Shown: positions 1,832-55,417, counted from the first letter of the stretch. The stretch is 64,000 nucleotides of DNA from Psilocybe cubensis (GCA_017499595.2 CM039004.1:186001-250000); one strand, 5' to 3'. Made by a program: numbers and translations. Notes: generated by a model not told the origin, from the sequence alone.

Positions 1832-3754
1832 GACTCGACCAGCATGGAACTTGAATTGGAAGCACCCTCGACATGACACGCCAATGTCGAGCCAGTCGTC
1901 CTCTTCCCAGGTCAACCGGCCCGACTTGCATCCCCCCGAGAAGAAAGAGATAAAAGACAACATGAATTCCAAAATGGGCAAGCAAGTTGCTTGTTTAAAA
2001 TGGAAGAACAGTCAAACGTCGCCTCGATCATAGGGGTGCATAATGCTTATCAAGTGGCTGATATATAGTAGTAATAGTGGAGATGCAGGGGAGGTAATCG
2101 TTAATATTAAATAATATTTTTAATCAACAGTGATACCGACTCACCGAGCACCGACGAGTAACAACCGCGAATCTTCTGCGTCCTTCGTTACCATATCCGC
2201 ATCCGCATCCGCATCCGCAATCTGCGCGGCCGAGATATGTGCATTGGTCATTACTTTCCTTCTTTACATGTTCACTTCCATGATATGATCTCCAGACCCG
2301 TGCTGCTGGCTACTTACACTTCAATTACACTTCCAATTACATAGCGTAGAATAGGGTTAGGTATATTTATAACTGTTAGTGTTAGTGTTATGTCAAAGTC
2401 TCCTAAGTCTTCGGAGCGCGCTCAATTTGGATATCGAGGCTCAGAGCCGCTGAATTGTGCAAATGCCAAACGCTCGTCGGGGAGTTCAGTCCCGGTGGTA
2501 CTATGTTCACACTGATCAACGGTAGGTGGTATCAAAACATCACGCTGACCATGATTACTACTTGATTAAGTGAAAAAACAACCCGCTAACCAATTGCATC
2601 AGCATTTTTTGGCTGCATAAAACTATACATCCCAGTCACACGCCGCGCGCGCTCAACGACATCTACCGACAAAAATGTAACCCGGAGAGACTTTCACCGG
2701 ACCTTCAAATTAAAACCATTCTGCATTCCCGACAATGACAATAGCTTAGCTTGTTTTCTCATGACACAGGGCAGCGAAGCTAACCCACCTAACCCAGATC
2801 CACCCGCGCTATTGACGTGCCGTGCCACATCTGGATGCCCTATCACATACACACGTAGCGCGGAAGCACAGTGAAGCACGAATCCCAAAGCGTCAAGTAT
2901 GCATCGGTGACGCGAGGACTCTGACCTCTGACAAGGGGTAAGTAGATAGCTTATCAGACGTCGCATCCCCATCCTTCCCAGCCCACGAAAGAAAGCACCT
3001 TCTTGTTCGTTCCTGGACCGGGTGGAGCATCCTATCTCCTTTGTTTGTTGTTCGCAGGGATGGGTAATAGCCAGCACCATCTGATTAACAAGAAATATTC
3101 CTGGAAGAAAATCGTCGTTGTTAGTTTGAGCACACGCATGTTCCATGCCCATGTTCAACAATCAGGGTGAAAGGGTGAAAGGTTCCATGATGGTCAGATT
3201 TCGAATTTCCAACCTTACCCTACGTTTCAATTTCGAGTCTATGAGTACCCTCACTGAACTGACATGACATAATAGAGCTCTCCGAAGACAGAAGACAGAG
3301 GTTCCAGTTCAGCGGGCACACAGGCACATCCGAATCCGAATCCGAGGCGTTTGCGTTTGCCACCGCCACGACAGAACAGAACAGAACAGCGTCATTCGTA
3401 CACTCCTTACTCTTCCATCTTCATGTCATTCCGACCTTCAGCTTCGGGTGTGACTATATACAACCATATACAACTCACACGCGCATCGCTCAAAACACCC
3501 ACCTGTAATTTATATCTCCACAAACACACACCAGTTTCCAAACAAAGACACCCAGAAAATTACGGAGTACAATATTATACAAACACCAAACACGAAACAC
3601 GAAACAGATTAAAAACCTTACCGCCACCGGACTGATCTTCTACTTGTACGTTTCTACTGTCCTCCCTCCTAGACTCGAATACGTATGTATGTATGGGAAG
3701 TGATATCTGGAAGAGCATATGTATATGATCATGAGTAAGAGCCTCACGCTAACA
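1832..3754. repeat. A1: left terminal A segment; left part diverged, right part matches internal copies
   Basis: SNPs and indels versus 9671-10189 up to position 2352 (AATAGGG vs AACAGGG); no differences seen afterwards. Confidence 0.93.
2694..3152 (-). CDS. Possible orphan ORF (~152 aa from ATG, MGMEHACAQ...) in segment A; present in all 7 A copies
   Basis: Longest ORF of the unit and still open in the diverged A7 (54354-54818), where I count 4 synonymous and 3 non-synonymous changes. No recognisable domain. Confidence 0.2.
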   Translation of the reverse strand: MGMEHACAQTNNDDFLPGIFLVNQMVLAITHPCEQQTKEIGCSTRSRNEQEGAFFRGLGRMGMRRLISYLLTPCQRSESSRHRCILDALGFVLHCASALRVYVIGHPDVARHVNSAGGSGLGGLASLPCVMRKQAKLLSLSGMQNGFNLKVR

Positions 3755-6700
3755 GGCTTAGTACTTCGTAGTGCAGTTGAAAGTGAAAAAGCGGCGTTGT
3801 GTGTTAAAATCGGGGGAATGCGTGATGATAATTTCCAAATGTAGAGCGAGTTACCATATTTTGACGACCCTGAGTGAAAGAGATAGAAGTTTTTTCTTAA
3901 ATTTTGCTAGGTGAACTTGCATAGGTTCTCCCCGCCCGAAGGCCTGCCATATATTTTTCTATCTACAACAAACAAGGTGCCTAAAGAATCCTGTCATGTC
4001 GGCACCCTTCAAAGTTGATAGGAAGTCGGGAAGTTGTCATCGCGGAAACTCCTAATCTAGATGGGCAGTAACATAGCTTTCATTGTCACGGTACAAATGT
4101 TGCAACACGATACAGAATTGAACAGTGAAACTTACCTGCAAGTTTGCCTTGACGACACGCACCGCGATCGCCTCCAAGCACATGTTGTAGGTTGTATTGT
4201 GCACATACGTCTTTGGGATACCTGTGAACTTCCTGTCAGTCTCGCTGCAGCTCGATGTAAAAAGAACAAGCGCTCAACAACACATGCTGCTGGCAGAATA
4301 GTTGGACACGGACACAAAACATTGCTTGCGGGAACTTCAGAAACCAAAGTTCAAATTCTGCAAACGGAGAATGGTGAGAACACGCTACAGAATTGGACCA
4401 TACAACCTACGTGGACTCAATACCCGGCCGCGGGAACCTCAGAGCACAGAACATTGCTCGCGGGAACTCCAAAAATCGAATTTTGAAATCTGGCGACAGA
4501 GAACCTCTGAGCACAAAATGTTGCTCGCGGGAAGTCCAAAAAACCGGCTGCTGACAGAATAGTGAGGACACAATACAGAGTTGGGAAATAGCACCTACGT
4601 GGACTCGACAGCCGCGGGAACTTCAGAGCACAAAACATTGCTCGCGGGAACTCCAAAAAACCGAACATCGAATTCTGGTAACCGAATAGTGAGTACACAA
4701 GATGTAATTGGACAATGCCCGGCCAGAACATTGGTCCCAAAATACTGTTCAAGAGAATAGTGAGGAAACGACACGGAATTGGACAACGGCACCTACGTGG
4801 ACTTGACACCCAGCCCGGGGGAACACAATGGCCGTGAAAAAACATCGCTCGCGGGAGCTCCAAAAATCAATTTTTAAAATCTGCTGAGAGAATAGTGAGT
4901 ACACGATATGGAGTTGAGCAATGACACGTACGTGGACTCGACACCCAGGCCGCGGGAACTCCAAATATTGAATTTGAGCACACTGTGCGTGTCGGCGGAC
5001 GTCCAAATATCAAATATGGGTGGGGTGCTCGCCGGAGCTCCAAAAATGCTGTTCAAGAGAGTAGTGAGGACACAACACAGACTTGGACACCAACACCTAC
5101 CTGGACTCAACACCCAGGTCATGGGAACACAATGCCAGTGAAAAACATTGCTCGCGGGAGACCCAAAAATCAATTCTTAAATTCTGTTGAGAGAATAGTG
5201 AGTACACGATGCAGAGTTGGACAATGACACGTACGTGGACTCGACACCCAGGCCGCGGGAACTCCAAATATCGAATTTGAGTACACCGTGATGGCCTAGC
5301 AGTGTCGGCGGACGTCCAAATATCAAATTTGGGTGGGACAGCATCATGTAGCGGACTGGCATAAACTCGGGATACAATCCCTGGCAAAGGAAAAAAATCA
5401 AAGTCGACCTATATACCGCATATTCAAGCTCCGCTATCCCTGCCACAAACAAACCCAAATTCTTCTAGCTCTGATCAATTTCGCTCCTATCAAGGTATAC
5501 GTACATATCCCGCTCCAGCTCAATTTTCAGACCGTAGAATACTTCATCTTCAATTCAACCCTGAAGATACTTTGAATTCAGTCTACAAAACAAAATGACA
5601 CTCAACTTTACATCACAGACACGAGTTCGAATGAAGACAACGCTTCAAGATCAAAAATAACGCACAAGTCCTCAATAACGAAACCACGCCGCTAGCGAAT
5701 ATCGGCTACTAGTAAGCAATATCTGGATCTAAAACCCAGCCCGTCGGTGCCCACAAACCAATCGTGCGGTTTTCAGGGTCGAAAATCTGCCTTTGAATGA
5801 CGCAAGTCTATCAAATTCAGGCCCCAAATTGAGTTTCCGGCTATTTTAGGTATGGTTGAAAGCTCAATTCTAAGGATTAACTGTGGATGCGTGTGATTCT
5901 GATGCAATTCTCTGTTTGTTCAAGGTAAGATTCCAACTAAAAGTCTATGTCGCATTTTCGGACTCAAAATCCGTGATTGATCGCTCCCCAGCGATTATAC
6001 GTCACTAGGTACTATCTTATTTGTCTGTGTCGCCGGACGCCCACAAACAAGTTCACAACCCGAGCCAAATTCGGATTGCCATGCTAATTTAAATAGTGCC
6101 TACGTCCAGACGGGTAGAAAAACATGTTTAAACTCTGAAAACGGGTATATATAACGTACCTTGCCTGCTTTCCATAGCCGGGACCTGTCCAAAAATATAT
6201 TTAAAACTGACATTAACACTCGTCGATAGAACTCGAATGGCGGTTGTTGAAGCTCCTGGAAAACGGTAACATTGCATTCACTGCTAGAGAACAAGACAGG
6301 CTTATCTATACCAGTTTAGTTCATTAGGAGAGGTTGGAAACTACGCTACACAGACAGATCTTTGCATAGTAACCGTTTAAACACATTTCAAGCTCACCAA
6401 ATCATATAACGGATGAAAACAGCGAGCCAACAGTATACAATGAGCATACTTCACAAAGGTCACCGTGTCTGTACAAATTTGTGCACTCCAGACGCTCGTA
6501 AACTATCTAAATTAACATTCAAATCGAAATAACCCACTACACGGACCCACAACCACCACTAAAGACACCCGGAAACGGCTGGAATGAGGTACATACAGAG
6601 ATACCCCACCGATAGCATCACTAACCCACAAGCCAGACCTGCTCGCATGTCACATAGACCACATCCAACGCCACGAACCAACCTCCTCCTCCTCCCCATT

Positions 6701-6870
6701 TACACATCCACAAGCATCTCAACCCGCGTTCTTTTCGCCCCCTTCGCGTTTCAGACCCATTACGACACCCCTTACATACACGATCGAACTATCTGTCAGA
6801 AGAAAATGAGAGGAAGACGCGGTGAACTCGACGAACGTTGCTGTGTGCTGGCAGCACATACACGCTATTT
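3755..6870 (-). ncRNA. Putative spliced non-coding transcript, left arm of B (ends approximate)
   Basis: Minus-strand TATAAA at 6897-6902 followed by a CT-rich tract; many minus-strand GT..AG segments including six regular introns at 4358-5234. My manual splicing of 5380-4797 reaches stops. No expression data. Confidence 0.35.
4287..5335 (-). repeat. Degenerate tandem exon-intron repeat (~130-190 bp monomers, ~303-bp higher-order dimer); present in every B
   Basis: Recurring motifs GAATAGTGAG(T/G)ACAC, C(C/G)TACGTGGACTCGAC, GCCGCGGGAACTCC, AACATTGCTCGCGGGA. On the minus strand monomers contain a 51-53-nt GTA(C/G)GT...CTCAC...CAG intron-like segment (5184-5234, 5049-5100, 4881-4931, 4745-4796, 4548-4598, 4358-4410). 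Confidence 0.85.
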
Positions 6871-6896
6871 GCGCAGAGAACGCGGTTTTGTACGTG

Positions 6897-6902
6897 TTTA
6901 TA
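6897..6902 (-). promoter_or_regulatory. Putative TATA box of the leftward transcription unit
   Basis: CTCTATAAAC on the minus strand, followed ~80-110 nt downstream by TCTTCCTCTCATTTTCTTCT. Confidence 0.35.
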
Positions 6903-8046
6903 GAGTCAGAGGGGCTATATGGTAACTTGAGTGGTATCCGGATATCGTTGGGAGGTTGGTGAGGCCGTGGATTCGCGGTCGAGGGTTGTTTGTGCAAATG
7001 ATCCCTGCATGTTGAAATCGCCCGTTTCACTCGAAATATCGTATATCTGTGCGTTTATGGTGAATGTGGGTGATTGTACACACAATATATTTCGCCACTT
7101 GATGTTCGAGATTGAAAATGTCAAGTCAGTTCTCAAATTCATCGAAACAATATCCATACTCGCCTCTTCTCCTCCACCCCGAATCCACCGCTCTTCTCTC
7201 AAATTTCGAACCGGATTCATATCACCCCCTAATCTATGAATACCCACTAGTCTATCTCACGTACATACTCGCATAATCCGAAGCTCAAACACGAAAATTT
7301 TCATCCATCTCCCGAGCACCGAATTCAGTTCTCCAGCACTAGAGCACAAAAACCACGTACGAGTTCAATAAAGACGCAAATTAAGAATACACCGAATGCA
7401 CACTAACACGTTTCGGATGTTCAGATAGTGCTCCAGGTTTGAATTTTTGCAACACAACTCACCAAGTGTGCATGATCCTCGGATGTCTCTCCCCGTCCCA
7501 TTCTTCCGAAAGAATGGCATTTTCAAACGACTTTGTTGTCAAGGGTTCTATTCGGGTGATACGTAATAGTGAACGGTGTTTTGAAAATGTTGGATCGAGC
7601 GGTGTCTTGACAAAAGCTAGATGTCGATGTTATGTATATTTCACTGAAATGCATTGTACGTACGGATTCAACGCGATGGCAATGACATACCGAGTAGTAG
7701 CAGAGTGAATAATTCAAATCTTGCAGCAGAGTGGCACTGTACTCGATAAAGCTGGAAGAAAGTTGACATTGCAAGAAATTCCATGTTTGAATCCAAACCG
7801 AAACGAAATGTCCATCAAACACACCGAAACAAAATGTCCAAATCAAACACACCAAAAACACATCTATTCACAGTTCCAAAAGGTTTAACGACAGAAGCAA
7901 GCCGTACATACCCTCGGCTAGCACTCGCTTCGCATTGAACTAGCAAAAACTCATTCGTAGATCCTCAAACTCGGACCCTGCAAAGCACGGTACAACCCGA
8001 AATTGCATAGCGTACCGGTGTACGTACAGCGGCGTGTTTCTGGGAC

Positions 8047-8135
8047 TATAAAAGGGTGCGTGAATCGACTCACTTTTTCCCATTCCACTCCCACTCCCCT
8101 CTCAGGGGTCCTCTCCTCTCTCCTCCCCTGTTCTG
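8047..8135 (+). promoter_or_regulatory. Putative core promoter: TATAAAA plus CT-rich box
   Basis: GGGACTATAAAAGGG at 8042-8056, then a ~60-nt pyrimidine tract (CACTTTTTCCCATTCCACTCCCACTCCCCT...CTCTCCTCTCTCCTCCCCT) and a canonical first intron at 8155-8219; typical fungal Pol II layout. Confidence 0.6.
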
Positions 8136-9660
8136 CACGGTGTCGGTTGTTCAGGTAAGCTATTCAGCTGCGCTTTGACACCGCGACTGACGGTGTTTTA
8201 CCGCCTGTTTGTGTGCCAGGTCATCGACTCGACTGACGAGCAGAGCACAGCAGACGTGTCCTGCACACGGTGAGTGAACTGCTTGGGTCTGTTGAGACGA
8301 TGCTGAATGGTGGTGTCGTGGTCTAGACGCGTTGTAGCGACATATTCAGTGAGTACGAGTGAAAATGTGTGACTCGCCTCATCCTGACGCGTCCCCCTTG
8401 CCCCCATTGCCACAGGTCATTGTGCTGCTCATGGGTTGACGTGTCGCGCTGGAACGTGAGTACGAACCCTACACACACGTACATAACCACTCCCATAGTG
8501 CTGCAAGACCCTTCTCGTGTCGTTTCACGCTCTCTGCCGCGTTGTTGAGAACTCGATTGAGGCCGGGCTAGAATGAGAGGTAGATGTGAGTACGAGCCTT
8601 ACACACATGTACATGACCACTCACCGGACACTTCCATTGTGCTTGTCGTTCCGCCCTCTCTGCGCCGTGGCGCCATGGTCTGTGAGTACAAGTAAAAACA
8701 AGATAGTCACGCCACGCTGAAGCTCTTTTCCTCACCCGATGACTGCTCGCCGTATACAAGAGGACCCGCCCATTGCACAGCAAGACCCTTACACCACCAC
8801 CCGTCATTTCGCCCTGTCTGCCGATTTGTGCATCGTGAGATGCGCCATAGCGCCATGTCCTGTGAGTACATATGAAAATGGCCTGGTCGCGTCATGCTGA
8901 AGCACCCTTCTTCACCCCCGCTATCACAGGTTGCCACCCATAGCACTGGACCTCGAGGCAACAGTGAGTACTAAATCCCAAACACATATAGATGTCCGCT
9001 CACCGTGTGTAAAAGGACCATTTTGTTGTGATGCAAAGAGACCTTCCCCGCCCATCGCTTTGCCCGTTGGATGCGCCGCGGCGCTGTGTTCAGTGAGTAA
9101 AGTGAATATAAAACCCCTTCACTGAATCACCTCGTCTCGACCTAGTGTCCAGTGTTGTGTTGAGGCTAGGCATATTGGTGAGTAAGAGGACGACGGCCTG
9201 GCCAACCCCTCGTTTATGACCTTGTAAGCTGAATAGATGGTGTCCAGTGTTGTGCAGGAGGGTGTAATGGATGTGTCGGGGTTAGGCATGGTGGTGAGTA
9301 AGACTACATAACCACTCACCGTGTGTAAGAGGATGACGTCCCTCATTTTTGACCTCGTACACTGCCAAAGTGCTGTCCCACCCCGCTCGCCTCTAACAGC
9401 CCCGCACAACCACTCGTTTTCGACCTCGTATGCTTGGTGTCTAGTGTTGGGCAGGAGGATATAAGTGATGTGTTGATGTTAGGCATAGTGGTGAGTAAGA
9501 CTACATAACTGCTCACCGTGTGCAAGAGGATGACGTCCCTCATTTTTGACCTTGTACACTGCCAGAGTGCTGTCCCACCCCGCTCGCCTCTGATAAGACC
9601 CCACGGACCAGACGGAAAGTTGTAGGCATGGTACGTGATGATTATGCGTCGGGAAACAGT
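8075..9660 (+). ncRNA. Putative multi-intron non-coding transcript, right arm of B (~12 donor sites, mostly short exons)
   Basis: Donor GTAAGC at 8155 and GTGAGT at 8270, 8349, 8456, 8586, 8682, 8862, 8964, 9093, 9178, 9294, 9491. Well-formed introns 8155-8219, 8270-8326, 8349-8415, 8862-8929, 8964-9015, 9093-9145, 9178-9236. First spliced ATG reads ATG GGT TGA. Confidence 0.5.
9238..9591 (+). repeat. Two-copy 197-bp direct tandem duplication within the right arm of B
   Basis: GTGGTGAGTAAGACTACATAAC...GCTGTCCCACCCCGCTCGCCTCT occurs at ~9291-9394 and ~9488-9591. Confidence 0.9.
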
Positions 9661-9670
9661 GGTTAGACTC

Positions 9671-12600
9671 GACTCGACCAGCATGGAACTTGAATTGGAA
9701 GCACCCTCGACATGACACGCCAATGTCGAGTCAGTCATCCTGGCCAACGGTCCGACTTGCAAGATAAAAGACAACATGAATTCCATAATTGGAAAGCAAG
9801 TTGCTTGTTTAAAATGGAAGAACAGTCAAACGTCGCCTCGATCATAGGGGTGCATAATACTTATCAAGTGGCTGATATATAGTAGTAATAGTGGAGATAC
9901 AGGGGAGGTAATCATTAATATCATTATTAATCAACAGTGAGACCTACTCACCGAGCACCGACGAGTAACAACCGCGAATCTTCTGCGTCCTTCGTTACCA
10001 TATCCGCATCCGCATCCGCATCCAAAATCTGCGCGGCCGAGATATGTGCATGTGTATGCACTCGACACTCGGTTGGTGTTGGTGAGTCATTACTTTTACT
10101 TTCCTTCTTTACATGTTCACTTTGACCTCCAGACCCGTGCTGCTGGCCACTTACACTTCAATTACACTTCCAATTACATAGCGTAGAACAGGGTTAGGTA
10201 TATTTATAACTGTTAGTGTTAGTGTTATGTCAAAGTCTCCTAAGTCTTCGGAGCGCGCTCAATTTGGATATCGAGGCTCAGAGCCGCTGAATTGTGCAAA
10301 TGCCAAACGCTCGTCGGGGAGTTCAGTCCCGGTGGTACTATGTTCACACTGATCAACGGTAGGTGGTATCAAAACATCACGCTGACCATGATTACTACTT
10401 GATTAAGTGAAAAAACAACCCGCTAACCAATTGCATCAGCATTTTTTGGCTGCATAAAACTATACATCCCAGTCACACGCCGCGCGCGCTCAACGACATC
10501 TACCGACAAAAATGTAACCCGGAGAGACTTTCACCGGACCTTCAAATTAAAACCATTCTGCATTCCCGACAATGACAATAGCTTAGCTTGTTTTCTCATG
10601 ACACAGGGCAGCGAAGCTAACCCACCTAACCCAGATCCACCCGCGCTATTGACGTGCCGTGCCACATCTGGATGCCCTATCACATACACACGTAGCGCGG
10701 AAGCACAGTGAAGCACGAATCCCAAAGCGTCAAGTATGCATCGGTGACGCGAGGACTCTGACCTCTGACAAGGGGTAAGTAGATAGCTTATCAGACGTCG
10801 CATCCCCATCCTTCCCAGCCCACGAAAGAAAGCACCTTCTTGTTCGTTCCTGGACCGGGTGGAGCATCCTATCTCCTTTGTTTGTTGTTCGCAGGGATGG
10901 GTAATAGCCAGCACCATCTGATTAACAAGAAATATTCCTGGAAGAAAATCGTCGTTGTTAGTTTGAGCACACGCATGTTCCATGCCCATGTTCAACAATC
11001 AGGGTGAAAGGGTGAAAGGTTCCATGATGGTCAGATTTCGAATTTCCAACCTTACCCTACGTTTCAATTTCGAGTCTATGAGTACCCTCACTGAACTGAC
11101 ATGACATAATAGAGCTCTCCGAAGACAGAAGACAGAGGTTCCAGTTCAGCGGGCACACAGGCACATCCGAATCCGAATCCGAGGCGTTTGCGTTTGCCAC
11201 CGCCACGACAGAACAGAACAGAACAGCGTCATTCGTACACTCCTTACTCTTCCATCTTCATGTCATTCCGACCTTCAGCTTCGGGTGTGACTATATACAA
11301 CCATATACAACTCACACGCGCATCGCTCAAAACACCCACCTGTAATTTATATCTCCACAAACACACACCAGTTTCCAAACAAAGACACCCAGAAAATTAC
11401 GGAGTACAATATTATACAAACACCAAACACGAAACACGAAACAGATTAAAAACCTTACCGCCACCGGACTGATCTTCTACTTGTACGTTTCTACTGTCCT
11501 CCCTCCTAGACTCGAATACGTATGTATGTATGGGAAGTGATATCTGGAAGAGCATATGTATATGATCATGAGTAAGAGCCTCACGCTAACAGGCTTAGTA
11601 CTTCGTAGTGCAGTTGAAAGTGAAAAAGCGGCGTTGTGTGTTAAAATCGGGGGAATGCGTGATGATAATTTCCAAATGTAGAGCGAGTTACCATATTTTG
11701 ACGACCCTGAGTGAAAGAGATAGAAGTTTTTTCTTAAATTTTGCTAGGTGAACTTGCATAGGTTCTCCCCGCCCGAAGGCCTGCCATATATTTTTCTATC
11801 TACAACAAACAAGGTGCCTAAAGAATCCTGTCATGTCGGCACCCTTCAAAGTTGATAGGAAGTCGGGAAGTTGTCATCGCGGAAACTCCTAATCTAGATG
11901 GGCAGTAACATAGCTTTCATTGTCACGGTACAAATGTTGCAACACGATACAGAATTGAACAGTGAAACTTACCTGCAAGTTTGCCTTGACGACACGCACC
12001 GCGATCGCCTCCAAGCACATGTTGTAGGTTGTATTGTGCACATACGTCTTTGGGATACCTGTGAACTTCCTGTCAGTCTCGCTGCAGCTCGATGTAAAAA
12101 GAACAAGCGCTCAACAACACATGCTGCTGGCAGAATAGTTGGACACGGACACAAAACATTGCTTGCGGGAACTTCAGAAACCAAAGTTCAAATTCTGCAA
12201 ACGGAGAATGGTGAGAACACGCTACAGAATTGGACCATACAACCTACGTGGACTCAATACCCGGCCGCGGGAACCTCAGAGCACAGAACATTGCTCGCGG
12301 GAACTCCAAAAATCGAATTTTGAAATCTGGCGACAGAGAACCTCTGAGCACAAAATGTTGCTCGCGGGAAGTCCAAAAAACCGGCTGCTGACAGAATAGT
12401 GAGGACACAATACAGAGTTGGGAAATAGCACCTACGTGGACTCGACAGCCGCGGGAACTTCAGAGCACAAAACATTGCTCGCGGGAACTCCAAAAAACCG
12501 AACATCGAATTCTGGTAACCGAATAGTGAGTACACAAGATGTAATTGGACAATGCCCGGCCAGAACATTGGTCCCAAAATACTGTTCAAGAGAATAGTGA

Positions 12601-39036: not shown

Positions 39037-39217
39037 TGTTGGAATGATAGTCGGCGAGCGACTTGGTCGCTAAGTCGTTATCTTCCTCTTGTAGTTTATC
39101 TTATCATATTTTTTCTAGATTATTCTACTATAGGTTCCGTAGTTACTGTAGGTACAACCGTGTAGCTACGTCGTGAATCTACATCTTTTACCACCACTGC
39201 GCATTATACTTACAACA
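39037..39217 (+). repeat. 5' LTR (181 bp)
   Basis: TGTTGGAATG...ACTTACAACA; no difference seen from the 3' LTR. Confidence 0.98.
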
Positions 39218-39229
39218 GGTTATGGGCCC
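39218..39229 (+). promoter_or_regulatory. Primer-binding site complementary to the anticodon arm of initiator tRNA-Met (half-tRNA priming)
   Basis: GGTTATGGGCCC directly after the LTR; same PBS type as Drosophila copia. Confidence 0.85.
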
Positions 39230-39312
39230 CGAGAGGTCATAACTAAAGCTCGCTTTGTTCTAAACTCGTTCTATTCTTATCGATCTATATCTAAACTTGT
39301 ACTCGACGTCAA

Positions 39313-43482: not shown

Positions 43483-43489
43483 GGGGGAG
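43481..43489 (+). other. Polypurine tract
   Basis: AAGGGGGAG directly before the 3' LTR, overlapping the pol stop codon. Confidence 0.9.
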
Positions 43490-43670
43490 TGTTGGAATGA
43501 TAGTCGGCGAGCGACTTGGTCGCTAAGTCGTTATCTTCCTCTTGTAGTTTATCTTATCATATTTTTTCTAGATTATTCTACTATAGGTTCCGTAGTTACT
43601 GTAGGTACAACCGTGTAGCTACGTCGTGAATCTACATCTTTTACCACCACTGCGCATTATACTTACAACA
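43490..43670 (+). repeat. 3' LTR (181 bp)
   Basis: Identical to 39037-39217 by eye. Confidence 0.98.
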
Positions 43671-45657
43671 GACATACCGAGTAGTAGCAGAGTGAATAAT
43701 TCAAATCTTGCAGCAGAGTGGCACTGTACTCGATAAAGCTGGAAGAAAGTTGACATTGCAAGAAATTCCATGTTTGAATCCAAACCGAAACGAAATGTCC
43801 ATCAAACACACCGAAACAAAATGTCCAAATCAAACACACCAAAAACACATCTATTCACAGTTCCAAAAGGTTTAACGACAGAAGCAAGCCGTACATACCC
43901 TCGGCTAGCACTCGCTTCGCATTGAACTAGCAAAAACTCATTCGTAGATCCTCAAACTCGGACCCTGCAAAGCACGGTACAACCCGAAATTGCATAGCGT
44001 ACCGGTGTACGTACAGCGGCGTGTTTCTGGGACTATAAAAGGGTGCGTGAATCGACTCACTTTTTCCCATTCCACTCCCACTCCCCTCTCAGGGGTCCTC
44101 TCCTCTCTCCTCCCCTGTTCTGCACGGTGTCGGTTGTTCAGGTAAGCTATTCAGCTGCGCTTTGACACCGCGACTGACGGTGTTTTACCGCCTGTTTGTG
44201 TGCCAGGTCATCGACTCGACTGACGAGCAGAGCACAGCAGACGTGTCCTGCACACGGTGAGTGAACTGCTTGGGTCTGTTGAGACGATGCTGAATGGTGG
44301 TGTCGTGGTCTAGACGCGTTGTAGCGACATATTCAGTGAGTACGAGTGAAAATGTGTGACTCGCCTCATCCTGACGCGTCCCCCTTGCCCCCATTGCCAC
44401 AGGTCATTGTGCTGCTCATGGGTTGACGTGTCGCGCTGGAACGTGAGTACGAACCCTACACACACGTACATAACCACTCCCATAGTGCTGCAAGACCCTT
44501 CTCGTGTCGTTTCACGCTCTCTGCCGCGTTGTTGAGAACTCGATTGAGGCCGGGCTAGAATGAGAGGTAGATGTGAGTACGAGCCTTACACACATGTACA
44601 TGACCACTCACCGGACACTTCCATTGTGCTTGTCGTTCCGCCCTCTCTGCGCCGTGGCGCCATGGTCTGTGAGTACAAGTAAAAACAAGATAGTCACGCC
44701 ACGCTGAAGCTCTTTTCCTCACCCGATGACTGCTCGCCGTATACAAGAGGACCCGCCCATTGCACAGCAAGACCCTTACACCACCACCCGTCATTTCGCC
44801 CTGTCTGCCGATTTGTGCATCGTGAGATGCGCCATAGCGCCATGTCCTGTGAGTACATATGAAAATGGCCTGGTCGCGTCATGCTGAAGCACCCTTCTTC
44901 ACCCCCGCTATCACAGGTTGCCACCCATAGCACTGGACCTCGAGGCAACAGTGAGTACTAAATCCCAAACACATATAGATGTCCGCTCACCGTGTGTAAA
45001 AGGACCATTTTGTTGTGATGCAAAGAGACCTTCCCCGCCCATCGCTTTGCCCGTTGGATGCGCCGCGGCGCTGTGTTCAGTGAGTAAAGTGAATATAAAA
45101 CCCCTTCACTGAATCACCTCGTCTCGACCTAGTGTCCAGTGTTGTGTTGAGGCTAGGCATATTGGTGAGTAAGAGGACGACGGCCTGGCCAACCCCTCGT
45201 TTATGACCTTGTAAGCTGAATAGATGGTGTCCAGTGTTGTGCAGGAGGGTGTAATGGATGTGTCGGGGTTAGGCATGGTGGTGAGTAAGACTACATAACC
45301 ACTCACCGTGTGTAAGAGGATGACGTCCCTCATTTTTGACCTCGTACACTGCCAAAGTGCTGTCCCACCCCGCTCGCCTCTAACAGCCCCGCACAACCAC
45401 TCGTTTTCGACCTCGTATGCTTGGTGTCTAGTGTTGGGCAGGAGGATATAAGTGATGTGTTGATGTTAGGCATAGTGGTGAGTAAGACTACATAACTGCT
45501 CACCGTGTGCAAGAGGATGACGTCCCTCATTTTTGACCTTGTACACTGCCAGAGTGCTGTCCCACCCCGCTCGCCTCTGATAAGACCCCACGGACCAGAC
45601 GGAAAGTTGTAGGCATGGTACGTGATGATTATGCGTCGGGAAACAGTGGTTAGACTC

Positions 45658-48600
45658 GACTCGACCAGCATGGAACTTGAATTGGAAGCACCCTCGACAT
45701 GACACGCCAATGTCGAGTCAGTCATCCTGGCCAACGGTCCGACTTGCAAGATAAAAGACAACATGAATTCCATAATTGGAAAGCAAGTTGCTTGTTTAAA
45801 ATGGAAGAACAGTCAAACGTCGCCTCGATCATAGGGGTGCATAATACTTATCAAGTGGCTGATATATAGTAGTAATAGTGGAGATACAGGGGAGGTAATC
45901 ATTAATATCATTATTAATCAACAGTGAGACCTACTCACCGAGCACCGACGAGTAACAACCGCGAATCTTCTGCGTCCTTCGTTACCATATCCGCATCCGC
46001 ATCCGCATCCAAAATCTGCGCGGCCGAGATATGTGCATGTGTATGCACTCGACACTCGGTTGGTGTTGGTGAGTCATTACTTTTACTTTCCTTCTTTACA
46101 TGTTCACTTTGACCTCCAGACCCGTGCTGCTGGCCACTTACACTTCAATTACACTTCCAATTACATAGCGTAGAACAGGGTTAGGTATATTTATAACTGT
46201 TAGTGTTAGTGTTATGTCAAAGTCTCCTAAGTCTTCGGAGCGCGCTCAATTTGGATATCGAGGCTCAGAGCCGCTGAATTGTGCAAATGCCAAACGCTCG
46301 TCGGGGAGTTCAGTCCCGGTGGTACTATGTTCACACTGATCAACGGTAGGTGGTATCAAAACATCACGCTGACCATGATTACTACTTGATTAAGTGAAAA
46401 AACAACCCGCTAACCAATTGCATCAGCATTTTTTGGCTGCATAAAACTATACATCCCAGTCACACGCCGCGCGCGCTCAACGACATCTACCGACAAAAAT
46501 GTAACCCGGAGAGACTTTCACCGGACCTTCAAATTAAAACCATTCTGCATTCCCGACAATGACAATAGCTTAGCTTGTTTTCTCATGACACAGGGCAGCG
46601 AAGCTAACCCACCTAACCCAGATCCACCCGCGCTATTGACGTGCCGTGCCACATCTGGATGCCCTATCACATACACACGTAGCGCGGAAGCACAGTGAAG
46701 CACGAATCCCAAAGCGTCAAGTATGCATCGGTGACGCGAGGACTCTGACCTCTGACAAGGGGTAAGTAGATAGCTTATCAGACGTCGCATCCCCATCCTT
46801 CCCAGCCCACGAAAGAAAGCACCTTCTTGTTCGTTCCTGGACCGGGTGGAGCATCCTATCTCCTTTGTTTGTTGTTCGCAGGGATGGGTAATAGCCAGCA
46901 CCATCTGATTAACAAGAAATATTCCTGGAAGAAAATCGTCGTTGTTAGTTTGAGCACACGCATGTTCCATGCCCATGTTCAACAATCAGGGTGAAAGGGT
47001 GAAAGGTTCCATGATGGTCAGATTTCGAATTTCCAACCTTACCCTACGTTTCAATTTCGAGTCTATGAGTACCCTCACTGAACTGACATGACATAATAGA
47101 GCTCTCCGAAGACAGAAGACAGAGGTTCCAGTTCAGCGGGCACACAGGCACATCCGAATCCGAATCCGAGGCGTTTGCGTTTGCCACCGCCACGACAGAA
47201 CAGAACAGAACAGCGTCATTCGTACACTCCTTACTCTTCCATCTTCATGTCATTCCGACCTTCAGCTTCGGGTGTGACTATATACAACCATATACAACTC
47301 ACACGCGCATCGCTCAAAACACCCACCTGTAATTTATATCTCCACAAACACACACCAGTTTCCAAACAAAGACACCCAGAAAATTACGGAGTACAATATT
47401 ATACAAACACCAAACACGAAACACGAAACAGATTAAAAACCTTACCGCCACCGGACTGATCTTCTACTTGTACGTTTCTACTGTCCTCCCTCCTAGACTC
47501 GAATACGTATGTATGTATGGGAAGTGATATCTGGAAGAGCATATGTATATGATCATGAGTAAGAGCCTCACGCTAACAGGCTTAGTACTTCGTAGTGCAG
47601 TTGAAAGTGAAAAAGCGGCGTTGTGTGTTAAAATCGGGGGAATGCGTGATGATAATTTCCAAATGTAGAGCGAGTTACCATATTTTGACGACCCTGAGTG
47701 AAAGAGATAGAAGTTTTTTCTTAAATTTTGCTAGGTGAACTTGCATAGGTTCTCCCCGCCCGAAGGCCTGCCATATATTTTTCTATCTACAACAAACAAG
47801 GTGCCTAAAGAATCCTGTCATGTCGGCACCCTTCAAAGTTGATAGGAAGTCGGGAAGTTGTCATCGCGGAAACTCCTAATCTAGATGGGCAGTAACATAG
47901 CTTTCATTGTCACGGTACAAATGTTGCAACACGATACAGAATTGAACAGTGAAACTTACCTGCAAGTTTGCCTTGACGACACGCACCGCGATCGCCTCCA
48001 AGCACATGTTGTAGGTTGTATTGTGCACATACGTCTTTGGGATACCTGTGAACTTCCTGTCAGTCTCGCTGCAGCTCGATGTAAAAAGAACAAGCGCTCA
48101 ACAACACATGCTGCTGGCAGAATAGTTGGACACGGACACAAAACATTGCTTGCGGGAACTTCAGAAACCAAAGTTCAAATTCTGCAAACGGAGAATGGTG
48201 AGAACACGCTACAGAATTGGACCATACAACCTACGTGGACTCAATACCCGGCCGCGGGAACCTCAGAGCACAGAACATTGCTCGCGGGAACTCCAAAAAT
48301 CGAATTTTGAAATCTGGCGACAGAGAACCTCTGAGCACAAAATGTTGCTCGCGGGAAGTCCAAAAAACCGGCTGCTGACAGAATAGTGAGGACACAATAC
48401 AGAGTTGGGAAATAGCACCTACGTGGACTCGACAGCCGCGGGAACTTCAGAGCACAAAACATTGCTCGCGGGAACTCCAAAAAACCGAACATCGAATTCT
48501 GGTAACCGAATAGTGAGTACACAAGATGTAATTGGACAATGCCCGGCCAGAACATTGGTCCCAAAATACTGTTCAAGAGAATAGTGAGGAAACGACACGG

Positions 48601-51600
48601 AATTGGACAACGGCACCTACGTGGACTTGACACCCAGCCCGGGGGAACACAATGGCCGTGAAAAAACATCGCTCGCGGGAGCTCCAAAAATCAATTTTTA
48701 AAATCTGCTGAGAGAATAGTGAGTACACGATATGGAGTTGAGCAATGACACGTACGTGGACTCGACACCCAGGCCGCGGGAACTCCAAATATTGAATTTG
48801 AGCACACTGTGCGTGTCGGCGGACGTCCAAATATCAAATATGGGTGGGGTGCTCGCCGGAGCTCCAAAAATGCTGTTCAAGAGAGTAGTGAGGACACAAC
48901 ACAGACTTGGACACCAACACCTACCTGGACTCAACACCCAGGTCATGGGAACACAATGCCAGTGAAAAACATTGCTCGCGGGAGACCCAAAAATCAATTC
49001 TTAAATTCTGTTGAGAGAATAGTGAGTACACGATGCAGAGTTGGACAATGACACGTACGTGGACTCGACACCCAGGCCGCGGGAACTCCAAATATCGAAT
49101 TTGAGTACACCGTGATGGCCTAGCAGTGTCGGCGGACGTCCAAATATCAAATTTGGGTGGGACAGCATCATGTAGCGGACTGGCATAAACTCGGGATACA
49201 ATCCCTGGCAAAGGAAAAAAATCAAAGTCGACCTATATACCGCATATTCAAGCTCCGCTATCCCTGCCACAAACAAACCCAAATTCTTCTAGCTCTGATC
49301 AATTTCGCTCCTATCAAGGTATACGTACATATCCCGCTCCAGCTCAATTTTCAGACCGTAGAATACTTCATCTTCAATTCAACCCTGAAGATACTTTGAA
49401 TTCAGTCTACAAAACAAAATGACACTCAACTTTACATCACAGACACGAGTTCGAATGAAGACAACGCTTCAAGATCAAAAATAACGCACAAGTCCTCAAT
49501 AACGAAACCACGCCGCTAGCGAATATCGGCTACTAGTAAGCAATATCTGGATCTAAAACCCAGCCCGTCGGTGCCCACAAACCAATCGTGCGGTTTTCAG
49601 GGTCGAAAATCTGCCTTTGAATGACGCAAGTCTATCAAATTCAGGCCCCAAATTGAGTTTCCGGCTATTTTAGGTATGGTTGAAAGCTCAATTCTAAGGA
49701 TTAACTGTGGATGCGTGTGATTCTGATGCAATTCTCTGTTTGTTCAAGGTAAGATTCCAACTAAAAGTCTATGTCGCATTTTCGGACTCAAAATCCGTGA
49801 TTGATCGCTCCCCAGCGATTATACGTCACTAGGTACTATCTTATTTGTCTGTGTCGCCGGACGCCCACAAACAAGTTCACAACCCGAGCCAAATTCGGAT
49901 TGCCATGCTAATTTAAATAGTGCCTACGTCCAGACGGGTAGAAAAACATGTTTAAACTCTGAAAACGGGTATATATAACGTACCTTGCCTGCTTTCCATA
50001 GCCGGGACCTGTCCAAAAATATATTTAAAACTGACATTAACACTCGTCGATAGAACTCGAATGGCGGTTGTTGAAGCTCCTGGAAAACGGTAACATTGCA
50101 TTCACTGCTAGAGAACAAGACAGGCTTATCTATACCAGTTTAGTTCATTAGGAGAGGTTGGAAACTACGCTACACAGACAGATCTTTGCATAGTAACCGT
50201 TTAAACACATTTCAAGCTCACCAAATCATATAACGGATGAAAACAGCGAGCCAACAGTATACAATGAGCATACTTCACAAAGGTCACCGTGTCTGTACAA
50301 ATTTGTGCACTCCAGACGCTCGTAAACTATCTAAATTAACATTCAAATCGAAATAACCCACTACACGGACCCACAACCACCACTAAAGACACCCGGAAAC
50401 GGCTGGAATGAGGTACATACAGAGATACCCCACCGATAGCATCACTAACCCACAAGCCAGACCTGCTCGCATGTCACATAGACCACATCCAACGCCACGA
50501 ACCAACCTCCTCCTCCTCCCCATTTACACATCCACAAGCATCTCAACCCGCGTTCTTTTCGCCCCCTTCGCGTTTCAGACCCATTACGACACCCCTTACA
50601 TACACGATCGAACTATCTGTCAGAAGAAAATGAGAGGAAGACGCGGTGAACTCGACGAACGTTGCTGTGTGCTGGCAGCACATACACGCTATTTGCGCAG
50701 AGAACGCGGTTTTGTACGTGTTTATAGAGTCAGAGGGGCTATATGGTAACTTGAGTGGTATCCGGATATCGTTGGGAGGTTGGTGAGGCCGTGGATTCGC
50801 GGTCGAGGGTTGTTTGTGCAAATGATCCCTGCATGTTGAAATCGCCCGTTTCACTCGAAATATCGTATATCTGTGCGTTTATGGTGAATGTGGGTGATTG
50901 TACACACAATATATTTCGCCACTTGATGTTCGAGATTGAAAATGTCAAGTCAGTTCTCAAATTCATCGAAACAATATCCATACTCGCCTCTTCTCCTCCA
51001 CCCCGAATCCACCGCTCTTCTCTCAAATTTCGAACCGGATTCATATCACCCCCTAATCTATGAATACCCACTAGTCTATCTCACGTACATACTCGCATAA
51101 TCCGAAGCTCAAACACGAAAATTTTCATCCATCTCCCGAGCACCGAATTCAGTTCTCCAGCACTAGAGCACAAAAACCACGTACGAGTTCAATAAAGACG
51201 CAAATTAAGAATACACCGAATGCACACTAACACGTTTCGGATGTTCAGATAGTGCTCCAGGTTTGAATTTTTGCAACACAACTCACCAAGTGTGCATGAT
51301 CCTCGGATGTCTCTCCCCGTCCCATTCTTCCGAAAGAATGGCATTTTCAAACGACTTTGTTGTCAAGGGTTCTATTCGGGTGATACGTAATAGTGAACGG
51401 TGTTTTGAAAATGTTGGATCGAGCGGTGTCTTGACAAAAGCTAGATGTCGATGTTATGTATATTTCACTGAAATGCATTGTACGTACGGATTCAACGCGA
51501 TGGCAATGACATACCGAGTAGTAGCAGAGTGAATAATTCAAATCTTGCAGCAGAGTGGCACTGTACTCGATAAAGCTGGAAGAAAGTTGACATTGCAAGA

Positions 51601-53493
51601 AATTCCATGTTTGAATCCAAACCGAAACGAAATGTCCATCAAACACACCGAAACAAAATGTCCAAATCAAACACACCAAAAACACATCTATTCACAGTTC
51701 CAAAAGGTTTAACGACAGAAGCAAGCCGTACATACCCTCGGCTAGCACTCGCTTCGCATTGAACTAGCAAAAACTCATTCGTAGATCCTCAAACTCGGAC
51801 CCTGCAAAGCACGGTACAACCCGAAATTGCATAGCGTACCGGTGTACGTACAGCGGCGTGTTTCTGGGACTATAAAAGGGTGCGTGAATCGACTCACTTT
51901 TTCCCATTCCACTCCCACTCCCCTCTCAGGGGTCCTCTCCTCTCTCCTCCCCTGTTCTGCACGGTGTCGGTTGTTCAGGTAAGCTATTCAGCTGCGCTTT
52001 GACACCGCGACTGACGGTGTTTTACCGCCTGTTTGTGTGCCAGGTCATCGACTCGACTGACGAGCAGAGCACAGCAGACGTGTCCTGCACACGGTGAGTG
52101 AACTGCTTGGGTCTGTTGAGACGATGCTGAATGGTGGTGTCGTGGTCTAGACGCGTTGTAGCGACATATTCAGTGAGTACGAGTGAAAATGTGTGACTCG
52201 CCTCATCCTGACGCGTCCCCCTTGCCCCCATTGCCACAGGTCATTGTGCTGCTCATGGGTTGACGTGTCGCGCTGGAACGTGAGTACGAACCCTACACAC
52301 ACGTACATAACCACTCCCATAGTGCTGCAAGACCCTTCTCGTGTCGTTTCACGCTCTCTGCCGCGTTGTTGAGAACTCGATTGAGGCCGGGCTAGAATGA
52401 GAGGTAGATGTGAGTACGAGCCTTACACACATGTACATGACCACTCACCGGACACTTCCATTGTGCTTGTCGTTCCGCCCTCTCTGCGCCGTGGCGCCAT
52501 GGTCTGTGAGTACAAGTAAAAACAAGATAGTCACGCCACGCTGAAGCTCTTTTCCTCACCCGATGACTGCTCGCCGTATACAAGAGGACCCGCCCATTGC
52601 ACAGCAAGACCCTTACACCACCCCCGTCATTTCGCCCTGTCTGCCGATTTGTGCATCGTGAGATGCGCCATAGCGCCATGTCCTGTGAGTACATATGAAA
52701 ATGGCCTGGTCGCGTCATGCTGAAGCACCCTTCTTCACCCCCGCTATCACAGGTTGCCACCCATAGCACTGGACCTCGAGGCAACAGTGAGTACTAAATC
52801 CCAAACACATATAGATGTCCGCTCACCGTGTGTAAAAGGACCATTTTGTTGTGATGCAAAGAGACCTTCCCCGCCCATCGCTTTGCCCGTTGGATGCGCC
52901 GCGGCGCTGTGTTCAGTGAGTAAAGTGAATATAAAACCCCTTCACTGAATCACCTCGTCTCGACCTAGTGTCCAGTGTTGTGTTGAGGCTAGGCATATTG
53001 GTGAGTAAGAGGACGACGGCCTGGCCAACCCCTCGTTTATGACCTTGTAAGCTGAATAGATGGTGTCCAGTGTTGTGCAGGAGGGTGTAATGGATGTGTC
53101 GGGGTTAGGCATGGTGGTGAGTAAGACTACATAACCACTCACCGTGTGTAAGAGGATGACGTCCCTCATTTTTGACCTCGTACACTGCCAAAGTGCTGTC
53201 CCACCCCGCTCGCCTCTAACAGCCCCGCACAACCACTCGTTTTCGACCTCGTATGCTTGGTGTCTAGTGTTGGGCAGGAGGATATAAGTGATGTGTTGAT
53301 GTTAGGCATAGTGGTGAGTAAGACTACATAACTGCTCACCGTGTGCAAGAGGATGACGTCCCTCATTTTTGACCTTGTACACTGCCAGAGTGCTGTCCCA
53401 CCCCGCTCGCCTCTGATAAGACCCCACGGACCAGACGGAAAGTTGTAGGCATGGTACGTGATGATTATGCGTCGGGAAACAGTGGTTAGACTC
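45658..53493. repeat. Unit 6 (A6 45658-47578 + B6 47579-53493), with a 1-bp deletion near 52622
   Basis: TTACACCACCCCCGTC here vs TTACACCACCACCCGTC in other units; this fuses two ORFs into 52392..52784. Confidence 0.93.
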
Positions 53494-55417
53494 GACTCGA
53501 CCAGCATGGAACTTGAATTGGAAGCACCCTCGACATGACACGCCAATGTCGAGTCAGTCATCCTGGCCAACGGTCCGACTTGCAAGATAAAAGACAACAT
53601 GAATTCCATAATTGGAAAGCAAGTTGCTTGTTTAAAATGGAAGAACAGTCAAACGTCGCCTCGATCATAGGGGTGCATAATACTTATCAAGTGGCTGATA
53701 TATAGTAGTAATAGTGGAGATACAGGGGAGGTAATCATTAATATCATTATTAATCAACAGTGAGACCTACTCACCGAGCACCGACGAGTAACAACCGCGA
53801 ATCTTCTGCGTCCTTCGTTACCATATCCGCATCCGCATCCGCATCCAAAATCTGCGCGGCCGAGATATGTGCATGTGTATGCACTCGACACTCGGTTGGT
53901 GTTGGTGAGTCATTACTTTTACTTTCCTTCTTTACATGTTCACTTTGACCTCCAGACCCGTGCTGCTGGCCACTTACACTTCAATTACACTTCCAATTAC
54001 ATAGCGTAGAACAGGGTTAGGTATATTTATAACTGTTAGTGTTAGTGTTATGTCAAAGTCTCCTAAGTCTTCGGAGCGCGCTCAATTTGGATATCGAGGC
54101 TCAGAGCCGCTGAATTGTGCAAATGCCAAACGCTCGTCGGGGAGTTCAGTCCCGGTGGTACTATGTTCACACTGATCAACGGTAGGTGGTATCAAAACAT
54201 CACGCTGACCATGATTACTACTTGATTAAGTGAAAAAACAACCCGCTAACCAATTGCATCAGCATTTTTTGGCTGCATAAAACTATACATCCCAGTCACA
54301 CGCCGCGCGCGCTCAACGACATCTACCGACAAAAATGTAACCCGGAGAGACTTTCACCGGACCTTCAAATTAAAACCATTCTGCATTCCCGACAATGACA
54401 ATAGCTTAGCTTGTTTTCTCATGACACAGGGCAGCGAAGCTAACCCACCTAACCCAGATCCACCCGCGCTATTGACGTGCCGTGCCACATCTGGATGCCC
54501 TATCACATGCACACGTAGCGCGGAAGCACAATGAAGCACGAATCCCAAAGCGTCAAGTATGCATCGGTGACGCGAGGACTCTGACCTCTGACAAGGGGTA
54601 AGTAGATAGCTTATCAGACGTCGCATCCCCATCCTTCCCAGCCCGCGAAAGAAATCGCCTTCTCGTTCGTTCCTGGACCGGGTGGAACATCCTATCTCCT
54701 TTGTTTGTTGTTCGCAGGGATGGGTAATAGCCAGCACCATCTGATTAACAAGAAATATTCCTGGAAGAAAATCGTCGTTGTTAGTTTGAGCACACGCATG
54801 TTCCATGCCCATGTTCAACGTTCAGGGTGAAAGGGTGAAAGCTTCCATGATAGGTCAGATTTCGAATTTCCAACCTTACCCTACGTTTCAATTTCGAGTC
54901 TATGAGTACCCTCACTGAACTGACATGACATAATAGAGCTCTCCGAAGACAGAAGACAGAGGTTCCAGTTCAGCGGGCACACAGGCACATCCGAATCCGA
55001 ATCCGAGGCGTTTGCGTTTGCCACCGCCACGACAGAACAGAACAGAACAGCGTCATTCGTACACTCCTTACTCTTCCATCTTCATGTCATTCCGACCTTC
55101 AGCTTCGGGTGTGACTATATACAACCATATACAACTCACACGCGCATCGCTCAAAACACCCACCTGTAATTTATATCTCCACAAACACACACCAGTTTCC
55201 AAACAAAGACACCCAGAAAATCACGGAGTTTAATATTACTCAAACACCCAACACTCAACACAAAACAGATTAAAAAAACTTTACCGCCACGGGACTGATC
55301 TTCTACTTGTACGTTCCTACTGCTCTCCCTCCTAGACTCGAATACGTATGTATGTATGGGAAGTGATATCTGGAAGAGCATATGTATATGATCATGAGTA
55401 AGAGCCTCACGCTAACA
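53494..55417. repeat. A7: right terminal A segment; left part matches internal copies, right part diverged
   Basis: First visible difference at 54509 (CACATGCAC vs CACATACAC), then 54531, ~54645-54664, ~54687, ~54820-54855 and a cluster at ~55220-55330. Unique sequence resumes after GCTAACA at 55417. Confidence 0.93.

Follow-up and report, generated by a model that had tools for sequence, protein, structure and literature searches.

A 64,000-nt stretch of Psilocybe cubensis DNA (GCA_017499595.2 CM039004.1:186001-250000; here called the window, within which all positions are counted) contains a head-to-tail array of a 7,837-bp unit at 1832-55417 on the + strand. We conclude that the array is probably a young non-coding macrosatellite, amplified through the repeats that flank its body rather than on account of any cargo within it. 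Its layout is R-X-(R'-X)x5-R, in which R is a repeat of ~1.92 kb (~1,921 bp) and X a body of ~5.92 kb (~5,916 bp). The two outer copies of R (R_L and R_R) are diverged from each other, and the five inner copies (R') are mutually identical hybrids of them. No gene is detectable in the unit. As in macrosatellites generally, the unit is of kilobase scale, is repeated head to tail, and occupies one locus.

Array structure and age

The array comprises six full periods and a seventh of 1,921 bp, which makes 6.245 periods rather than six. In terms of the unit its length is 6 x 7,837 + 1,921 bp, with the same repeat at the start and the finish, and such a non-integer count is what repeat-flanked amplification predicts. 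The top peak of the 20-mer offset spectrum lies at 7,837 (29,777 shared 20-mers), with secondary peaks at 12,476 (7,837 + 4,639, reflecting an insertion) and 7,836 (a 1-bp deletion). At the left edge, blastn homology to the unit begins at 1832; the first 413 bp (1832-2244) are 88.4% identical to the unit, with indels, and from 2353 on identity is 100%. At the right edge, homology to the unit stops exactly at 55417. The period and both boundaries had been proposed in a first-pass annotation of this DNA, and the k-mer offsets and blastn alignments bear them out. A chance origin is impossible for exact 7.8-kb repeats.

We cut the array into periods U1-U7 in phase with its start and used U2 (9671-17507, 7837 bp) as the reference for all differences. 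U3 (17508-25344) and U4 (25345-33181), each of 7837 bp, do not differ from it. U5 (33182-45657, 12476 bp) carries a single 4,639-bp insertion and nothing else, and U6 (45658-53493, 7836 bp) lacks one base near 52622, where ACCACCACCCG has become ACCACCCCCG (52615-52630, + strand). U1 (1832-9670, 7839 bp) departs from the reference in its first 519 positions only, by 26 substitutions, 4 insertions (40 bp) and 1 deletion (38 bp). The partial U7 (53494-55417, 1924 bp) has 24 substitutions and 3 inserted bases, all at unit positions 1016-1828. Both ends of the array are therefore diverged, and the interior varies only by one copia element and the 1-bp deletion near 52622. The first-pass annotation had listed these two changes as the only visible differences, which holds for the interior and fails at the ends, where R positions 61-519 and 1016-1828 differ.

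There are no substitutions at all among U2-U6, and U1 is identical to them past its position 519, which leaves an interior of more than 39 kb free of substitutions. The expansion is thus very young, in agreement with the first-pass annotation, which had called it very recent. The parental repeats are old by comparison, with ~2.3% substitutions plus indels between them. The two private changes, the copia insertion and the 1-bp loss, arose after the units bearing them were last duplicated.

Hybrid inner repeats and the founding exchange

The origin of the array is recorded in its seven copies of R. In an alignment of all seven, R_L (1832-3754, + strand) departs from the five inner copies only within R positions 61-519, where it has 26 substitutions and 5 indels, and matches them exactly beyond. 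R_R (53494-55417, + strand) is identical to the inner copies up to position 1015 and differs from them only at positions 1016-1828, by 24 substitutions and 3 extra bases. A direct alignment of R_L with R_R gives 93.7% identity, 43 mismatches and 10 gaps that span 81 nt in all. The five inner repeats (R' at 9671-11591, with further copies at 17508-19428, 25345-27265, 33182-35102 and 45658-47578, all + strand) are identical to one another, and each is a hybrid with its 5' part as in R_R and its 3' part as in R_L.

These hybrid repeats show that the array began with homologous exchange between two 1.9-kb direct repeats already present at the locus. They bear the signature of a single founding unequal exchange, from which all inner junctions descend. 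R_L, R_R and R' agree over R positions 520-1015 (496 bp; 10190-10685 on the + strand in the first inner copy), and the points of the founding and later exchanges must fall within this interval.

We propose that the ancestral locus was R_L-X-R_R, in which a 5.9-kb gene-free body lay between old direct repeats of ~1.92 kb that had drifted to 93.7% identity. A single unequal exchange, with R_R on one chromatid (or homologue) paired to R_L on its partner, would have produced R_L-X-R'-X-R_R. With 7.8 kb of perfect homology then available, more unequal exchanges or replication slippage could have led to the six X copies in the assembly. To go from two to six X would have taken two or more additional exchanges, or a single replicative event; we infer the number and kind of these steps. 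The exchanges would have been recent enough for zero substitutions to have accumulated. Last, an active copia element would have inserted into one copy, and one base would have been lost from another.

Because the founding exchange occurs between the flanking repeats, no cargo is needed for amplification. The first-pass annotation had taken as its premise that large tandem amplification normally serves to raise the dose of a selected gene, and had inferred that a non-coding RNA, a cis element or a selfish replicating unit is what is amplified here; this premise finds no support. Yeast offers a documented case of amplification that was not under direct selection (PMC4856073).

Could the array instead have passed through a circle? 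Recombination between R_L and R_R would excise a 7,837-bp circle made of X and one R', and this could replicate by a rolling-circle mode or from its own origin before homologous recombination returned it to the locus as a multimer, as a 'selfish' origin-bearing amplicon. A circle formed by direct-repeat recombination would carry exactly the observed hybrid (5' from R_R, 3' from R_L), so the two routes, circle and unequal sister-chromatid exchange, are indistinguishable from sequence alone. The circle route could also yield six identical copies in one step. In yeast, formation of a circle followed by tandem integration into a chromosome has been shown, and origins adjoin several amplified genes (PMC4352087). 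However, the route calls for excision, replication and reintegration where unequal exchange alone is sufficient, and a basidiomycete origin is not something that can be recognised in bare sequence. Moreover, the 496-bp tract common to the end repeats would suggest several exchanges at the ends rather than one integration. We consider the circle improbable and retain unequal exchange between the flanking repeats as the likelier founding step.

Hexanucleotide microsatellites occur at or close to the array edges. An (ACCAGA)6 tract at 1791-1827 stops 4 bp short of the left edge of R_L, R itself contains (ATCCGC)4 at 2195-2219, and (AACCAA)4.7 at 55593-55620 is 176 bp past the right array boundary. 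These edge microsatellites may have had a role in the original duplication that yielded two copies of R.

Search for genes in the unit

The reference copy of X (11592-17507, + strand) is 5.9 kb long and has no coding or known RNA signal. Further copies are at 3755-9670, 19429-25344, 27266-33181, 35103-45657 (with the copia element) and 47579-53493. The first-pass annotation had recognised no rRNA, tRNA or coding sequence in the unit, a verdict now backed by Rfam, ARAGORN, Pfam, coding statistics and protein searches.

No Rfam model reached its gathering score anywhere in the window. At E <= 10, the unit returned only two chance-level matches to miRNA models, mir-297 (E 5.4) and mir-24 (E 4.3). 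ARAGORN predicted no tRNA genes. With no structural RNA gene found by either program, we rejected an array of rDNA, tRNA, snRNA or snoRNA genes.

The protein-level searches were similarly empty. Among 107 stop-to-stop open reading frames (ORFs) of at least 45 aa, none had a Pfam match above cut-off. The best sub-threshold match, to DUF2805 (E 0.0026, 18.5 bits against a cut-off of 22.5), was judged to be noise, and a 14-bit match to the pertussis-toxin S4 model is a chance hit without meaning. When the unit was read through stops, none of the six frames matched a Pfam family at E <= 0.1. The longest ORF of the unit (160 aa) is close to simulated expectation (153 +/- 26), and 33% of simulations reach at least that length. 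The number of stop codons (637) likewise follows the second-order null (635 +/- 24). Median 3-base periodicity is 1.01 in the unit and 1.00 in shuffles, compared with 2.98 in the copia ORF.

A splice-aware search for the longest ORF found 193 aa on the + strand of the unit and 304 aa on the - strand, with a null of 193 +/- 43. The same search recovered the neighbouring WSC-domain gene (465 aa, 6 introns) as a positive control. A 155-aa ORF of the unit found no match among 74 candidates in a protein database search, and a 73-aa exon-like ORF found none among 20 candidates in a search of longer proteins. The 160-aa ORF had one match among 1.84 billion representatives (E 2.5e-5). We rejected it as repeat-inflated chance, since a 20-residue stretch hits a repeated Y_Y_Y/LRR bacterial protein six times. 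A conserved spliced protein gene, which the first-pass annotation had said would count against its own reading, was thus sought both by splice-aware ORF search and by protein searches, and none that is credible emerged. With no coding signal, spliced gene or credible homologue in the unit, an amplified protein-coding gene array was rejected. We infer the absence of a selected function.

The observed/expected CpG ratio is 0.97, from which it follows that the unit has not decayed like an old methylated repeat or one mutated by repeat-induced point mutation (RIP). The substitutions between R_L and R_R comprise 29 transitions and 22 transversions, without the transition bias typical of RIP. RIP and methylation decay were both rejected on these two counts. 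We also noted that the + strand of the array has more A than T and more C than G throughout (in 2-kb windows, AT skew up to +0.19 and GC skew down to -0.15), an asymmetry that stops in the right flank.

X contains two blocks of degenerate sub-repeats, identified by self-blast. Block 1 (12150-13175, + strand) has periods of ~190 and ~300 bp at 70-85% identity, and block 2 (16100-17430, + strand) has spacings of 79-197 bp, with the best pair 86% identical. Three additional AGTGAGTAC motifs lie in block 1, at 12526, 12732 and 13035. A structured RNA or hairpin cluster in block 2 was considered and rejected: the predicted fold of 16960-17460 (501 nt) is no better than that of shuffled sequence (z = 0.11), and 56 of 100 shuffles fold at least as well.

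Observations that weigh against the preferred reading

Several observations weigh against a young, gene-free array driven by its flanking repeats, and they concern its history, its copy number and its content.

The first is the 496-bp tract itself. It is identical in both parental repeats and is far longer than 2-5% divergence leaves by chance, which implies that exchange took place more than once or that gene conversion had come before. The best explanation is either a series of exchanges in which the end repeats took part, or a pre-existing conversion tract that steered the crossover as well. Repeated exchange at the edges is what would be expected if the array were old and had been homogenised by ongoing unequal exchange and gene conversion (concerted evolution), and long-lived tandem arrays typically have a homogeneous core with diverged edges. 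However, zero substitutions in an interior of more than 39 kb, with two private changes only, would demand very fast turnover, and a single hybrid form occupies all five inner junction repeats. We find an old array very doubtful and continue to favour recent expansion.

The second is copy number. The interval 2353-39036 is a perfect repeat of 36.7 kb (4.7 periods) without one distinguishing base, so that the assembly may miscount copies there. By its internal markers, X comes in just three distinguishable kinds (plain, copia-bearing and 1-bp-deleted), which proves at least three copies; a total of six depends on the marker-free 36.7-kb stretch. To that extent the first-pass annotation's own caveat of an assembly artefact holds. 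The six periods given in the first-pass annotation accordingly stand as six full periods in the assembly, omit the partial seventh, and go beyond what the markers prove. It could be that the tandem duplication is real and its copy number was inflated by the assembler, with 3 to 5 true copies of X. The perfect repeat is longer than typical high-accuracy long reads. On the other hand, collapse of tandem repeats is commoner than expansion in modern assemblies, and no assembler would invent a structure as biologically coherent as that made up by the hybrid R', the copia target duplication and the diverged ends. We judge inflation unlikely; a repeat-flanked array of six X copies remains our working description. 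The array nevertheless marks a region where the assembled copy number wants confirmation by ultra-long reads.

The remaining points concern content. ORFs of at least 100 aa are mildly over-represented in the unit (16, against 10 +/- 3 expected). This is borderline, as 16 or more are reached in 4% of 300 second-order simulations and in 0.3% under a first-order null. The 304-aa spliced path on the - strand was matched by only 1 of 120 simulated strands; we judged it spurious, given that it requires exons of 6 nt and 24 nt. Further, TATAAAAG at 15877, followed downstream by 11 GTGAGT motifs on the same strand, is compatible with a spliced non-coding transcript. These 11 motifs, 10 of which read GTGAGTA, lie in block 2 within 1.2 kb (16107-17328), on the + strand only, downstream of TATAAAAG, and recur in each period. 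Across the unit GTGAGT occurs 15 times on the + strand and 6 times on the - strand, compared with an expectation of ~2 for each, and strict intron-like patterns number 6 on the + strand and 1 on the - strand, against 2.3 +/- 1.7 in simulations. In general, the lack of a detectable gene does not prove the lack of a function: lineage-specific non-coding RNAs (ncRNAs), replication origins and arrays of binding sites are invisible to Pfam and Rfam.

Taken together, the TATA-like TATAAAAG and the + strand excess of GTGAGT and of intron-like patterns could be read as a sign that the array was kept or expanded for its content. It would then provide dosage of an unannotated, possibly multi-intron ncRNA, or act in cis as an array of binding sites or as a chromatin boundary. 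Some human macrosatellites are transcribed or bind CTCF. Yet the GTGAGT motifs sit in degenerate sub-repeats, and as copies of one ancestor they are not independent. Unlike the six introns of the neighbouring WSC gene, which are AT-rich and 60-76 nt long, the candidate introns are rich in GC, and several of them would have to span 100-130 nt. The first-pass annotation had suggested amplified ncRNA; with an Rfam null and a fold z-score of 0.11 for the 501-nt segment, this has no positive evidence. Finally, the repeat-flanked layout accounts for amplification without cargo. Selection on content is, in our estimation, distinctly unlikely as the driver, compared with recombination between the flanking repeats.

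A bolder proposal is that the unit is not passive at all. It might be an origin-bearing amplicon cycling through circles formed by R x R recombination, or might encode a lineage-specific multi-intron ncRNA (with the TATA box at 15877 and the donor-like GTGAGTA run at 16107-17328), and in either case its dose would be under selection, so that the array would be a gene-free amplified functional locus in a mushroom-forming fungus. We hold this to be a long shot. Should the unit prove to be transcribed or self-replicating, the locus would gain considerably in interest.

The copia insertion and possible transposon-based origins

The insertion in the X of period 5 is a Ty1/copia long terminal repeat (LTR) retrotransposon of 4,634 bp (39037-43670, + strand). 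Its LTRs are identical over 181 bp (39037-39217 and 43490-43670), and the element runs from TGTTGG to ACAACA, hence from TG to CA. It is flanked by a 5-bp target duplication, GACAT, at 39032-39036 and 43671-43675. The gag-pol ORF is intact (1,395 aa, 39295-43482), with Pfam domains in the order Retrotran_gag_2 (residues 37-216), rve (515-614) and RVT_2 (903-1144). The gag-integrase-RVT_2 order, TG..CA LTRs and 5-bp duplication confirm that the element belongs to Ty1/copia; the first-pass annotation had identified it correctly. The element is seemingly active. Its nearest relatives in the database come from Agrocybe pediades (64% identity) and Coprinellus (57%), which places the host among Agaricales-type mushrooms with no proteins of their own in that database. 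With the best match at only 64%, the protein collection searched contains no close kin of the family. The array is a ready marker for work on copy number and recombination in Psilocybe cubensis, and the copia element provides an internal anchor.

Could the array itself be derived from a transposon? Multimeric LTR-retrotransposon arrays have the form LTR-internal-LTR-internal-LTR and arise via inter-repeat recombination. The array described here follows the same arithmetic, n x (repeat + body) + repeat, which raises the question of whether R-X-R might be a 'large retrotransposon derivative' (LARD), a kind of non-autonomous LTR retrotransposon, multimerised by recombination between LTRs. The sizes would fit, with 1.9-kb terminal direct repeats around a 5.9-kb body. 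The ~2.3% substitution divergence of the outer repeats (43 mismatches) resembles that of an ageing LTR pair, and R ends in CA.

The hallmarks are otherwise missing. R starts with AGACTC, not TG, and finishes with AACA. No target-site duplication surrounds the array (AAGTC on the left, CGAAT on the right). By eye, no primer-binding site follows R, where GGCTTAGTACTT contains no TGG, and no clean polypurine tract precedes it, where GGGAAACAGTGGTT is only partly purine. None of the six read-through frames of the unit contains a remnant of gag, protease, reverse transcriptase or integrase. In addition, self-blast of the 10.4 kb of flanking DNA found no further copy of R or X, and CpG is undepleted. 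The array is thus set apart from an LTR-element multimer, LARDs included, by an R without TG..CA ends, target duplication or primer-binding site and by an X without retroelement remnants. We regard this origin as highly improbable, and exchange between two direct repeats as the better account of the same arithmetic.

Other element types were also rejected. A Helitron or rolling-circle array, whose units run from 5'-TC to CTRR-3' and sit between A and T, does not fit the array end, which reads ...GCTAACA followed by CGAAT (a 3' hairpin was not formally searched), and the diverged outer ends argue against synthesis in one step. No terminal inverted repeats were found, only seven weak inverted pairs of 16-21 nt. 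A subtelomeric position was rejected, as there is no TTAGGG run.

Comparison with known tandem arrays

The closest structural parallels are in yeast. Like the HXT6-HXT7, CUP1, ENA and rDNA arrays, the Psilocybe array lies head-to-tail between two similar flanks, with hybrid copies at its junctions, and its near-identical units are of the kind produced by unequal sister-chromatid expansion. An HXT array with a hybrid junction gene was reportedly described by Brown and colleagues in 1998. The yeast arrays carry a gene selected for its dose, such as a hexose transporter or a metallothionein, whereas neither a gene nor a known RNA is detectable here and the flanking repeats are non-coding. The yeast arrays are named in PMC4856073, and the original papers are listed in PMC8150848.

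Amplification of XylA/ARS1529 through a circle in yeast also produced a tandem array at the original locus (PMC4352087). That case differs in having no flanking repeats (8-nt microhomology was used), a proven origin and a selected gene.

Human macrosatellites (D4Z4, with a 3.3-kb unit; DXZ4; RS447; the 7.3-kb tRNA array at 1q23.3) resemble the array in their kilobase units, single locus, head-to-tail order and high identity, and, like it, many have no known function. They usually have tens of units, with known copy-number polymorphism, and are often GC-rich, with a gene or CTCF sites. In contrast, the Psilocybe array has six units, is represented by one sequence, and contains no gene that we could find.

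We found no description of such an array in the literature on large tandem repeats in fungi and Agaricomycetes, which argues weakly for the array being unpublished. The ABR1 repeat of Agaricus is not a large tandem unit but a hAT-type non-autonomous transposon (PMC10051438).

The locus retains nearly every stage in the birth of an array: diverged parental repeats, a single form of hybrid junction, identical units, and two later private mutations. It also illustrates that tandem amplification can be large and recent with no selected gene on board, a caution for genome scans that take amplification as a sign of function.

Neighbouring sequence

The nearest gene is 2.4 kb to the right of the array, a multi-exon model at 57798-59600 (+ strand) that encodes 465 aa and has six introns of 60-76 nt. 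A WSC carbohydrate-binding domain (Pfam, E 2.5e-12) occurs in the ORF at 58072-58518 of this gene. Farther into the right flank, short duplications lie within 61026-62188: 61755-61822 and 62121-62188 are 96% identical, and 61167-61278 and 61986-62117 are 76% identical. ORFs overlapping these duplications had no Pfam match. One ORF, at 61197-61571, may resemble proteins linked to the Kyakuja-Dileera-Zisupton/Plavaka transposons of mushrooms.

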